64,000 nt of DNA from the NCBI RefSeq assembly GCF_003334355.1, contig NZ_QOWP01000001.1. One strand, given 5' to 3'. The notes under the pieces are model-generated. The model saw only the letters and a list, made by a program, of their open reading frames with translations, did not search any database and had not been told where the DNA came from. Position 1 is the stretch's first letter; each line of letters starts with the position of its first letter. This document shows, piece by piece, positions 20,868 to 23,237 of the stretch. A program made the position numbers and the translations under genes. Source of the stretch: Escherichia coli (GTDB taxonomy: Bacteria; Pseudomonadota; Gammaproteobacteria; Enterobacterales; Enterobacteriaceae).

Positions 20868-21626
20868 TTAAGTTAAACTTCGGCGGTCAGAAACGATGGC
20901 AACCAGAGAAACCGCCTTCTGTGCCTGTTCCAGCACTTCGCTGTAGGGCGCTCTGGAATCAATCTCAAGAATTTTTGTGCCGTTATAGCCAATCGTCGAC
21001 ATAACACCGATTTTGTCCTGCAGCTCGGCATAGTCATGGTCAGGCTTGCGGGAGATGGCAGTCTCAATATCAATCCCCAAACGAATGATTAATTCAGGAC
21101 GGTATTGCGCCATTTGTTGGTATAAACACCGTTCGCGCTGCGCCAGAAACATGCTGATTTTCCCGGTCGCACGTTCGACGCCAATCCCCGGTCCGTCATA
21201 ATAAAAGCCCGAAATTTCAGCCTGCGGGAAGCGATCGCTGACCACCAGAACGCCACTTTGCGCCAGTCGCTGAACCTTGCGTAGATTCGCCATTCTTCGC
21301 AGCGAGAAGCAGTACATAATCACCGCCGCCCATAGCGCTGGAGATTTGGTTTTCATGCTTTGGGTTTTCGAGGATTTGGCCGCCAATCGCCGTTCCAGCC
21401 AGACGCCAACCAACGGCAATCGTTTGATTTTGTCGCCGTCTTCGCCGGAGAGCAGCCCCAGATAGCGCCGCTCGGTTTGCCAGTGTTGTTGCAGCGATTT
21501 CACCAGGTCGGTGGTCAGTGTGGATTTACCGGTGCCATCACACCCGACCACCGCAATCAGCCCCGGAATGTAGTTGGGCTGCGGCGCGGTTGTACTAATA
21601 ACAGTTTGTGTTTGTAGTGCATCCAT
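20868..21626 (-). CDS. yghR: P-loop NTPase, thymidylate-kinase-like fold (putative small-molecule kinase)
   Basis: Walker A VVGCDGTGKSTL, DR(Y/F) motif VVSDRFPQ, and conserved RKPDH; 252 aa. Confidence 0.85.
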   Translation of the reverse strand: MDALQTQTVISTTAPQPNYIPGLIAVVGCDGTGKSTLTTDLVKSLQQHWQTERRYLGLLSGEDGDKIKRLPLVGVWLERRLAAKSSKTQSMKTKSPALWAAVIMYCFSLRRMANLRKVQRLAQSGVLVVSDRFPQAEISGFYYDGPGIGVERATGKISMFLAQRERCLYQQMAQYRPELIIRLGIDIETAISRKPDHDYAELQDKIGVMSTIGYNGTKILEIDSRAPYSEVLEQAQKAVSLVAIVSDRRSLT

Positions 21627-21657
21627 TCGTTAAATCATCCCCTATCCATTTTGGTGA

Positions 21658-22371
21658 TCAGGAAAGCGCGGCGTGAATTGCGCGTAGTGACGCTTGCAGA
21701 ATTTCATCGGCTGGTTGCCGACCATCCAGTTCAAGGATCTTTGCGCCATTGAATGTCAATTGCGGCGTAACGGCGATTTTTTCCTGTAACGCTGCCAGTT
21801 GGTGGTCAGGTTTACGCGCAAACGCGGTTTGTTCATCAATGCCAAGACGAATCAACAATACGGGCAAATAAGACGCCATCCATTGGTACAGCTTCAACTC
21901 GCGCTGCCTTAACATTTTTATCCAACCGTTACCGCCCGTGGTTTTTGCCAATTGCGGGCCATCAAAGCGAAACCCCGGCACTTCAACCTGCGGGTAGCGG
22001 TCGGTGATGAGCAGAAAGCCTTGCTGGCTTTTACACAACATTTTGCGAAACTTGTACGCCCGCCAGCAGGAAAGCAGATAGATAACCAGTGCAGTAATAT
22101 TGCCAGGCGGTGTTGAGGGCTTTTCGTGCACATGTGCCGCTTTACTTCGCAGATAACGCCCAAAAGGTGCGCCAATAACAGGGAGCTGTGAAATCCATTC
22201 GCCAATTCGCCCGGACGATTGCCCGAGATAAATGTGTTCTGTTGGCATTCTTGCTGCCAGTTCATTTACCAGGCTTGCCGTGAGGGTCGATTTACCTGAA
22301 CCATCACATCCTACAATGGCAATAACATGCACTGGCGTGGAATTAATTATTGACATATTACGTTGATTCAC
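21658..22371 (-). CDS. yghS: P-loop NTPase, thymidylate-kinase-like fold, paralog of yghR/yghT
   Basis: Walker A IVGCDGSGKSTL, ITDRYPQ, ARKPDH; 237 aa. Confidence 0.85.
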   Translation of the reverse strand: MNQRNMSIINSTPVHVIAIVGCDGSGKSTLTASLVNELAARMPTEHIYLGQSSGRIGEWISQLPVIGAPFGRYLRSKAAHVHEKPSTPPGNITALVIYLLSCWRAYKFRKMLCKSQQGFLLITDRYPQVEVPGFRFDGPQLAKTTGGNGWIKMLRQRELKLYQWMASYLPVLLIRLGIDEQTAFARKPDHQLAALQEKIAVTPQLTFNGAKILELDGRQPADEILQASLRAIHAALS

Positions 22372-22544
22372 GAAAAACCCGGCAGTAAATAATGTATTGA
22401 ATATTACGTGGTCCGTGCTCAGAATATCCGTTCAACCTTATTGTGACAATGGTTAATTGTGACATTGACCTGAATTACGCTTTCATAAAAACATATTAAC
22501 CAAATAAATATTTTTAATAGATATTTAAATTAAAGGATATATTC
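22372..22544. promoter_or_regulatory. Divergent yghS / yghT promoter region with direct TTGTGACA repeats
   Basis: AT-rich spacer; ttgtgaca at 22441-22448 and 22458-22465 (cttattgtgacaatggttaattgtgacattgacc). Confidence 0.4.
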
Positions 22545-23237
22545 ATGCAGTCAATAACACCTCCATTAATTGCCGTTATTGGTAGCGATGGTTCAGGCAA
22601 GTCAACGGTGTGTGAACATCTTATTACCGTTGTCGAAAAATATGGTGCTGCCGAAAGAGTTCATTTAGGAAAACAGGCCGGAAATGTCGGTCGTGCAGTG
22701 ACAAAATTACCGTTGATGGGAAAATCCTTACATAAAACAATTGAACGAAATCAGGTGAAAACAGCAAAAAAATTGCCTGGACCAGTTCCGGCGCTGGTAA
22801 TTACAGCGTTTGTCGCCCGTCGCTTACTGCGCTTTCGTCATATGCTTGCCTGTCGTCGTCGCGGGTTAATTGTTCTAACCGACCGTTATCCTCAGGACCA
22901 AATTCCTGGCGCTTACGATGGTACGGTGTTCCCACCTAACGTTGAAGGTGGTCGTTTTGTCTCATGGCTGGCAAGCCAGGAACGTAAAGCGTTTCACTGG
23001 ATGGCGAGCCATAAGCCTGATCTGGTCATCAAACTCAATGTTGACCTTGAAGTTGCCTGTGCACGTAAACCCGACCATAAACGGGAATCGCTGGCGAGGA
23101 AGATTGCCATAACGCCACAGTTAACCTTTGGTGGTGCACAACTGGTTGATATCGATGCCAATCAGCCACTGGAACAGGTGTTGGTTGATGTAGAAAAAGC
23201 GATTACGGATTTTATGACCGCGCGTGGTTATCACTAG
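22545..23237 (+). CDS. yghT: P-loop NTPase, thymidylate-kinase-like fold, paralog of yghR/yghS
   Basis: Walker [26 protein letters not shown]; 230 aa. Confidence 0.85.

Follow-up and report, generated by a model that had tools for sequence, protein, structure and literature searches.

Thymidylate-kinase-like paralogs of the Escherichia coli sphingolipid locus as predicted head-group phosphotransferases

Results and Discussion

Three P-loop paralogs at the head of a flippase operon

In a 64,000-nucleotide (nt) stretch of Escherichia coli DNA (assembly GCF_003334355.1, contig NZ_QOWP01000001.1), called the window here, three neighboring genes, yghR, yghS, and yghT, encode P-loop proteins that are named as nucleotide kinases in public databases and that lie within a set of genes for sphingolipid synthesis and export. 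Paralogy, fold, motif conservation, and gene fusions are shown directly, as are the fold of a CHAD-type neighbor and a strong association with the locus; YghR, YghS, and YghT are very probably dedicated sphingolipid head-group phosphotransferases.

The minus strand carries yghS (positions 21658 to 22371, 237 amino acids [aa]), the first gene of its operon, followed by yghR (20868 to 21626, 252 aa); both are predicted to encode P-loop phosphotransferases of the dTMP kinase superfamily and define the S and R clades described below. The third paralog, yghT (22545 to 23237, 230 aa; T clade), is divergent and monocistronic on the plus strand. An earlier note, made from the sequence alone, had described three paralogous open reading frames (ORFs), and their coordinates, lengths, and kinship were all confirmed. 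Pairwise BLASTP aligned the proteins over essentially their full length with identities far above chance: 44% for YghR and YghS (E 2e-62), 37% for YghS and YghT (E 8e-54), and 34% for YghR and YghT (E 3e-46). All three contain the motifs listed in that note, a Walker A sequence G(C/S)DG(T/S)GKST (GCDGTGKST, GCDGSGKST, and GSDGSGKST), a (S/T)DR(F/Y)PQ sequence with forms such as VVSDRFPQ and LITDRYPQ, and RKPDH.

The note had also placed the trio on both sides of a flippase operon. The minus-strand tandem leading into yghQ and the divergence of yghT were as described, but yghS and yghR proved to be the first two genes of the flippase operon itself rather than genes flanking it. The minus-strand order is yghS-yghR-yghQ-CHAD (274 aa)-ytfJ-like-lptF2-lptG2, with successive gaps of 31, 45, −1, 8, 30, and −4 nt. 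A search for terminator-like hairpins found no strong one inside the run from yghS to lptG2, where the few weak matches of 5 to 8 pairs stayed within the number expected by chance; strong hairpins occurred only at 15868 to 15902 and 23248 to 23276.

None of the three proteins has a transmembrane segment, all are basic (net charge +8 to +12), and no convincing membrane or amphipathic anchor was found in the insertion between P-loop and DRY motif (maximum KD19 about 1.1 to 1.35). Soluble cytoplasmic phosphotransferases would fit these properties.

Fold and family assignment

The closest family model for all three proteins was the dTMP kinase (Tmk) model TIGR00041, yet their scores of 32.5, 24.5, and 25.8 bits fell far below its curated cutoff of 83.25. 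A Pfam search of the trio returned nothing significant (Thymidylate_kin i-Evalues of 0.076 to 1.8), and single-sequence searches of the PDB with YghS and YghT yielded merely P-loop noise or marginal Tmk matches. Fold recognition with a profile built from 43 family sequences reached Tmk chains at E 1.7e-10, in agreement with the thymidylate-kinase-like fold first suspected in the note.

The profile alignment superimposes the P-loops, D124-R125-Y/F126 on the Tmk DRY motif, and the region of R186 on the LID, so the trio combines a P-loop, a DR(Y/F/H) motif, and a LID arginine on a Tmk fold. A helix with the pattern L/F100-S101-x-x-R104 falls on Tmk F-S-A-N-R, in which the Phe stacks on the base and the Arg binds the phosphate of dTMP; R104 of the trio lies on that Arg, and the position of the base-stacking Phe is Phe or Leu. 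Compared with Tmk (TIGR00041/PF02223), the trio has about 20 to 30 additional residues between P-loop and DRY and extra invariant positions (P127-Q128, D137-G138, E158, K187, D189-H190, and K198). Unlike a universal housekeeping kinase, the trio genes are multicopy, dispensable, and tied to one locus.

Public records from the Prokaryotic Genome Annotation Pipeline (PGAP) and UniProt name these proteins "dTMP kinase," "thymidylate kinase," or "ATP-binding protein YghR." If those names were right, the trio would be genuine kinases of dTMP or another nucleoside monophosphate (NMP), supplying nucleotides for an activated head-group donor. The database names, the rank of TIGR00041 as best family match, and the Phe or Leu at the base-stacking position all speak for this reading. 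Set against it are the scores given above, the confinement of three copies to an accessory locus to which 682 of 5,426 complete E. coli genomes have no match, and the lack of a nucleotidyltransferase in the locus that could use such a nucleotide. Moreover, Sulfolobus paralogs with the identical annotation showed no dTMP kinase activity (PMC12995831). We regard the nucleotide kinase reading as extremely improbable. Judged by sequence, the name "dTMP kinase" is not justified for the trio, because TIGR00041 and Pfam scores lie far below membership, and thousands of annotations would be wrong.

Two other assignments were rejected. Models from PADLOC gave merely P-loop-level matches, and a reading as a defense system was dropped. 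Homology to the Caulobacter ceramide kinase CpgB was rejected as well: CpgB is a diacylglycerol kinase (DAGK)-type enzyme with a GGDG motif (PMC10331486), a fold distinct from the P-loop Tmk fold of the trio. Descriptions of the Caulobacter head-group genes include no P-loop or Tmk-like kinase; the head-group proteins there are given as CDP-DAG-synthase-like, nucleotidyltransferase-like, CDP-alcohol-transferase-like, and a phosphoesterase.

The surrounding sphingolipid locus

The genes beside the trio form a bacterial sphingolipid locus. In Caulobacter, the gene set defined for making and exporting ceramide comprises Spt, AcpR, AasR, CerR, CerS, LptF2/G2, and a flippase (PMC11324152; bioRxiv 10.64898/2026.04.12.717747), and a "sphingolipid operon" of E. 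coli UTI89 has been drawn (Fig. 2B of bioRxiv 10.64898/2026.04.12.717747). On the plus strand of the window lie an AasR-like fatty acyl-AMP ligase gene (PGAP coordinates 11814 to 13502; NF006624, 867 bits), a gene for an NAD-dependent epimerase or short-chain dehydrogenase-type reductase resembling CerR (13499 to 14413; CerR role from PMC11324152), a dedicated acyl carrier protein (ACP) gene (14445 to 14693; called by PGAP, with PP-binding Pfam matches in orthologous loci), and spt for serine palmitoyltransferase (14693 to 15865; NF047599, 599 bits against a cutoff of 500; "spt" in PGAP). Upstream on the minus strand, yghO (10263 to 11405) encodes a probable N-acyltransferase and candidate bacterial ceramide synthase. 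Searches of YghO against Pfam and NCBIfam gave no match; the assignment is made because of gene position, yghO being colocalized with ligase, reductase, ACP, and Spt genes in 30 loci.

The export half of the locus lies downstream of yghR. The 449-aa product of yghQ (19473 to 20822, minus strand) is a MOP/Wzx-type flippase with a weak NCBIfam match to MOP flippases, and its Serratia ortholog matches Polysacc_synt in Pfam. It is followed on the same strand by the CHAD-type gene (18649 to 19473), a gene for a secreted YtfJ-family protein (18077 to 18640; TIGR01626, 211 bits against a cutoff of 151; present in 38 loci), and an lptF paralog encoding an LptF2-type sphingolipid exporter permease (16976 to 18046; TIGR04407, 317 bits), for which a role in sphingolipid export has been reported (bioRxiv 10.64898/2026.04.12.717747). 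The lptG paralog (15900 to 16979, minus strand) is a pseudogene in the window strain, where an internal stop divides it into ORFs of 103 and 275 aa. PGAP flags the same "internal stop" in a 99.9% identical strain, whereas O157:H7 (LSU61) has an intact copy. Should LptF2/G2 export be required to prevent toxicity, as in Caulobacter, production or export of the lipid may be lost in the window strain.

Neither a glycosyltransferase nor a nucleotidyltransferase nor a CDP-alcohol transferase was found in the E. coli locus, and phosphorylation is therefore the only head-group chemistry that this locus can supply. The window locus is 99.9% identical over 13.3 kb to that of E. coli strain PSS-12, and at least 80% of the 13.3 kb is present in 4,052 of the 5,426 complete E. 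coli genomes (about 75%). The kinase trio itself occurs in 4,605 (85%). K-12-type genomes such as LTE0 have an IS5 element in place of the region from the acyl-AMP ligase gene through the 5′ part of yghQ (window positions 11500 to 20400), with yghO, yghR, yghS, and yghT intact, which leaves K-12 with orphan head-group genes but no ceramide pathway.

The position of the trio raises the possibility that its members are ATPase or accessory subunits that energize or gate YghQ or LptF2/G2 instead of biosynthetic kinases. The locus lacks an LptB paralog, the trio genes are tightly placed beside the flippase gene, and fusions to flippases exist. However, MOP flippases are not driven by ATP, and the proteins have a small-molecule-kinase fold with DRY and LID arginines rather than that of an ABC or motor ATPase. 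In addition, Caulobacter LptF2/G2 bind the housekeeping LptB (bioRxiv 10.64898/2026.04.12.717747). A transport-energizing role is thus very unlikely.

Conservation across 83 loci

A scan of one genome per species gave 80 loci, to which 3 further loci from Serratia and Carnimonas were added, and the contents of all 83, from about 40 lineages, were counted by tblastn and all-against-all clustering. Enterobacterales, Halomonadaceae, Xanthomonadales, Nitrosomonadales and other betaproteobacteria, Sphingomonadales, Acetobacteraceae, Myxococcota, and one Planctomycetota metagenome-assembled genome were covered. Members of the kinase family were counted in 81 loci, with 234 copies at two to four per locus. 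The YghQ-like flippase followed in 63, the 274-aa CHAD-type protein in 56, Spt (within 10 kb) in 53, the reductase in 50, the ligase in 45, and LptF2 and LptG2 in 38 each. At least one of Spt, CerR, the acyl-AMP ligase, YghO, flippase, CHAD, or Lpt2 was present in 73 loci, and many of the loci without lipid-gene neighbors were short contigs. The association with lipid and flippase genes noticed in the window therefore extends well beyond it. The interpretation given in the note is thus partly supported: of the substrates it had proposed (a lipid head group, a sugar, or a nucleotide precursor), the lipid context held up, whereas a nucleotide kinase function is extremely improbable.

When copies were assigned to the nearest E. 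coli paralog, 56 loci held one R, one S, and one T, nearly always arranged T(−)|S(+)R(+). The R gene lies directly downstream of S in most related loci, and Serratia and Carnimonas share the arrangement of E. coli. Several betaproteobacteria have S and R only, and some Lysobacterales have four copies. The module was also found in Pantoea, Erwinia, Citrobacter, Acetobacter, Sphingomonadales, and many uncultured Proteobacteria, as well as in Serratia. On this sequence evidence, the triplication is taken to be ancient and maintained, because the R/S/T set recurs across the 56 loci in conserved order.

Two observations concern the spread of the locus. Close homologs of the trio were found on large plasmids of Pseudomonas veronii, Klebsiella michiganensis, and Rahnella aquatilis (H22 to H24), which is consistent with horizontal spread. 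One locus recorded as Martelella alba (L023) has an Enterobacterales-like gene order with protein identities of 63 to 78% (66 to 69% for the kinases); the assembly is probably contaminated or misassigned, because a locus typical of Enterobacterales stands under an alphaproteobacterial record.

Residues expected to be catalytic were retained in all three clades. K27, D23, R104, D124, R125, P127, D137, E158, R186, K187, D189, H190, and K198 were conserved at 94% or more in each clade, most at 97 to 100%, and Q128 was at 93% in the T clade. The clades differ in having their own residues at positions 100, 101, 108, and 130, on or near the acceptor-site helix of Tmk; diagnostic of the T clade on the acceptor-side helix are F100, V/T101, and Q/D130. 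All three paralogs thus look catalytically competent but not identical, because every catalytic-type residue is kept in all three clades.

Metagenomic proteins join S-like and R-like domains in one chain (P0121) or T-like and S/R-like domains (P0122 and P0124), and these natural fusions therefore point to physical or functional coupling. In a distant branch of the family, the kinase domain is fused to an N-terminal domain of about 260 aa, to MOP flippases (P0248 and P0264), or to a GT4 glycosyltransferase (P0225). Pfam and NCBIfam searches with the 260-aa domain gave no match, and the idea that it is a CHAD domain was rejected (hhalign probability 0.1). Fusion proteins of about 500 aa (P0168, P0169, and about 90 further matches) form a large metagenomic family with the N-terminal motif GETDLDLLVD. 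In two loci (L086 and L087), a gene for such a fusion adjoins a second small kinase gene, glycosyltransferase genes, and wzy, and L086 also has a Wzx flippase.

Outside the enteric bacteria, the loci add an acyl hydroxylase resembling OlsC and LpxO (E 2.5e-64), a homolog of the lipid A 1-phosphate O-methyltransferase LmtA (E 1e-31), and one or two PAP2 phosphatases related to LpxE, LpxF, and UppP. The LmtA-like gene is often cotranscribed with the T paralog (for example, in L048, L050, L058, L063, L071, and L073, at about 8000 to 10000). A small DgkA-type (DAGK_prokar) kinase gene stands at the edge of 20 loci, including those of Serratia, Carnimonas, Pantoea, and Rosenbergiella (for example, L004, 2279 to 2644, and L003, 12404 to 12730), and in 3 others (L017, L053, and L074) a YegS/CpgB-type lipid kinase takes its place; by homology, both types are candidate ceramide kinases. 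Characterized relatives of the LmtA-like, PAP2, and DgkA/YegS-like additions act on the phosphates of membrane lipids, which they add, remove, or mask. The LmtA-like, PAP2, and OlsC/LpxO-like genes suggest tailoring of the lipid, in both its phosphates and its acyl chain, in nonenteric loci.

These lipid kinases bear on a further alternative, in which the trio replaces CpgB and each paralog phosphorylates a different ceramide hydroxyl (C1-OH, C3-OH, or the 2- or 3-OH of the acyl chain), giving mono- to trisphosphorylated ceramide with phosphomonoesters and not phosphoanhydrides. About 23 loci have a DgkA-like or YegS/CpgB-like lipid-hydroxyl kinase besides two or three Tmk-like genes, and the ceramide kinase step there would therefore be carried out by another enzyme. 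In addition, the P-loop Asp, R104, and DR(Y/F) set follows the phosphate-acceptor pattern of Tmk and not that of deoxynucleoside kinases, and hydroxyl kinases would leave the CHAD-type partner unexplained. For these reasons, we consider hydroxyl phosphorylation by the trio unlikely. Where a lipid-hydroxyl kinase sits beside Tmk-like genes, the suggested division of labor is therefore that the former makes ceramide-1-phosphate and the Tmk-like enzymes act later.

The CHAD-type neighbor and comparison with known systems

Between yghQ and the ytfJ-like gene lies the gene for a 274-aa protein annotated "hypothetical/Ybl138," which is predicted to be a divergent, stand-alone CHAD domain of the polyphosphate-binding type. 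Searches against Pfam (even at E ≤ 10), NCBIfam, and PDB sequences gave no match. The predicted structure is an all-helical double bundle (pLDDT 94), and, as expected of CHAD (PF05235), it comprises two four-helix bundles with conserved His, Arg, and Lys; the family invariants are mostly of these types (R60, R88, K92, H93, R95, H105, H193, R196, and H237). Foldseek against AFDB50 found orthologs from Sphingomonas, Acetobacter, Komagataeibacter, Zymomonas, and Pseudomonas veronii labeled "CHAD domain-containing protein" in UniProt, with 28 to 42% identity and TM scores of 0.93 to 0.97. By structural modeling, then, the 274-aa protein is a divergent CHAD domain. CHAD is a specific module for binding inorganic polyphosphate, built of two four-helix bundles and usually encoded in operons of polyphosphate enzymes (PMC6537752).

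A CHAD gene beside thymidylate kinase paralogs has one described precedent. In Sulfolobus acidocaldarius, the adjacent genes Saci_2019 and Saci_2020, annotated as thymidylate kinases, encode a heterotetrameric polyphosphate kinase, PPK3, in an operon that also holds ppx, sixA, and a CHAD gene, with the gene for the true dTMP kinase at another site; PPK1 and PPK2 are absent from most organisms with PPK3 (PMC12995831). The E. coli-type loci likewise have adjacent dTMP kinase paralogs (two to four in each of 81 loci), a CHAD gene in the operon, and the real tmk elsewhere. The homolog of cPPK3 from S. tokodaii (5h70, identical in sequence to 2plr) was the second-best structural match of YghS.

The trio could accordingly be a PPK3-like heteromeric polyphosphate kinase or a polyphosphate:ADP phosphotransferase for free polyphosphate, with CHAD binding the polymer and the link to sphingolipids being indirect, through local phosphate or energy supply or through polyphosphate as a lipid phosphate donor. 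Several differences make this quite unlikely. The E. coli module has three paralogs, not two, all intact in their catalytic residues, unlike rPPK3. E. coli already has a PPK1 of its own, unlike most PPK3 organisms, and also PPX. Polyphosphate-related neighbors (ppx, sixA, pst, and NUDIX genes) were found neither in the E. coli locus nor among the families that recur across the 83 loci, and no specific sequence affinity to PPK3 was seen. In dozens of lineages the kinase genes are cotranscribed with Spt genes and that of a lipid flippase, which argues for a lipid-linked product, and the product proposed for these genes, set amid sphingolipid synthesis, flippase, and Lpt-export functions, would be lipid anchored and not free polyphosphate. 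We therefore treat the trio as analogous to PPK3 and do not class it as PPK3, because of the intact paralogs, the lack of polyphosphate genes and of specific affinity, and the lipid context. By this analogy, the trio suggests a second, independent recruitment of thymidylate kinase paralogs and CHAD for phosphoanhydride chemistry.

The ceramide phosphoglycerate pathway of Caulobacter, in which the ceramide kinase CpgB acts with CpgA, CpgC, and CpgD (PMC10331486, PMC11324152, PMC12275187), resembles the proposed system in setting: head-group enzymes are encoded inside a locus with Spt, ACP, AasR, CerR, CerS, LptF2/G2, and flippase genes, and the expected product is an anionic outer-membrane sphingolipid. 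The enzymes differ, however: nucleotidyltransferases and a CDP-alcohol-type transferase are encoded in the Caulobacter locus, which lacks Tmk-like and CHAD genes, and the E. coli-type locus shows the reverse. Lipid A offers a parallel in chemistry, with LpxK, LpxT, LpxE/F, and LmtA adding, extending, removing, and methylating phosphates on an outer-membrane lipid, and LmtA-like and PAP2 genes adjoin the kinases in many nonenteric loci. LpxT makes a 1-diphosphate on lipid A, but it does so as a PAP2 enzyme in the periplasm, using undecaprenyl-PP, and LpxK, although a P-loop kinase, is of another family and acts on a hydroxyl; none of these enzymes is Tmk-like.

Proposed head-group pathway

From these data we infer kinase activity, a phosphate rather than a hydroxyl acceptor, sequential or heteromeric action, and the nature of the product. 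In the proposed pathway, Spt, ACP, the acyl-AMP ligase, the reductase, and YghO would make (dihydro)ceramide at the cytoplasmic face. A lipid-hydroxyl kinase would then phosphorylate ceramide at C1, a step assigned to the DgkA-like or YegS/CpgB-like enzyme in many loci and to the housekeeping DgkA in E. coli, which phosphorylates ceramide in vitro in the classical diacylglycerol kinase assay for ceramide. With ATP at the P-loop, YghS, YghR, and YghT would transfer phosphate onto an existing phosphate, as NMP kinases and PPK3 do, with the invariant R104 and R125 as putative counterparts of the pair of Tmk arginines at the acceptor phosphate. Stepwise extension would give a di-, tri-, or oligophosphate head group, each paralog being tuned to a different chain length or position, probably within an S-R(-T) heteromer. 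As the phosphate chain lengthens, the CHAD-type protein would keep hold of it; YghQ would then flip the anionic lipid, and LptF2/G2, driven by LptB, would export it to the outer membrane.

Confidence falls as this pathway becomes more specific. That the trio consists of active, soluble phosphotransferases that extend a ceramide phosphate head group and are not nucleotide kinases is, as worded, a proposition we hold to be evenly balanced. The specific phosphoanhydride model is tentative, with somewhat less than an even chance. Doubtful is the further step in which the trio and the CHAD-type protein polymerize phosphate on ceramide-1-phosphate into a ceramide-anchored oligo- or polyphosphate, an undescribed lipid class.

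Several points weigh against phosphate extension. The argument for a phosphate acceptor stands on a remote Tmk alignment with 17 to 22% identity, and the CHAD assignment is structure-only, with no Pfam match on the E. coli protein. The likeness to PPK3 has gaps: the trio has no regulatory or degenerate-looking paralog to give one catalytic plus one regulatory subunit, ppx, sixA, and pst are missing from its E. coli locus, and the family profile matched 2plr at E 1.7e-4 through the P-loop only, versus the far better score against canonical Tmks. The wider kinase family also sits in Wzx/Wzy polysaccharide clusters, and the acceptor could therefore be a sugar or another part of the head group. 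The anionic head group of the Caulobacter sphingolipid is built by quite different enzymes (PMC11324152). Finally, searches of the open-access literature found no biochemical or functional study of YghR, YghS, or YghT, no lipidomics of an E. coli sphingolipid, and no ceramide di-, tri-, or polyphosphate.

It was not until recently that bacterial sphingolipid synthesis was worked out, in Caulobacter. The conserved, putative head-group module described here, made up of the trio, the CHAD-type protein, and the MOP flippase, is distinct from the phosphoglycerate pathway found there. The genes have long been known and the locus was already recognized as sphingolipid related; we found no publication assigning a role to YghR, YghS, YghT, or the CHAD-type protein, and none naming the lipid made by E. 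coli. If the proposal is right, carriers of the locus, about 75% of complete E. coli genomes and many Proteobacteria, could display a polyanionic surface lipid independent of lipid A, the charge of which would be tuned in other taxa by PAP2 and LmtA-like enzymes. An anionic sphingolipid in the outer membrane would matter for susceptibility to polymyxin, for the robustness of the envelope, and for recognition by the host, like CPG2 in Caulobacter. The question of the enterobacterial sphingolipid is thereby narrowed to specific candidates: ceramide phosphate (Cer-P), ceramide diphosphate (Cer-PP), and longer forms (Cer-PPn).

Control region and flanking gene

The divergent genes yghS and yghT are separated by an AT-rich control region of 173 nt (22372 to 22544). 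It contains a 12-nt direct repeat, ATTGTGACA(A/T)TG, in two copies 16 nt apart at 22440 to 22467, which may be a regulator binding site. Promoter-like hexamers were present on both strands of the spacer, but no more often than expected by chance. Downstream of yghT, the low-affinity inorganic phosphate transporter gene pitB (23286 to 24785, minus strand) is convergent with it and shares the terminator hairpin at 23248 to 23276. The adjacency is probably coincidental, because inspection of called genes in loci from Serratia and Carnimonas did not show it.

Incidental mentions of the region occur in published screens. Expression of yghS rose 3.1-fold on SlyA overexpression, and silencing of the locus by H-NS is therefore likely; papers on SlyA overexpression and on systematic evolution of ligands by exponential enrichment (SELEX) with FlhDC list yghS or the yghS/yghT spacer region, and a further incidental mention stands in the knockout list of a silkworm virulence screen.

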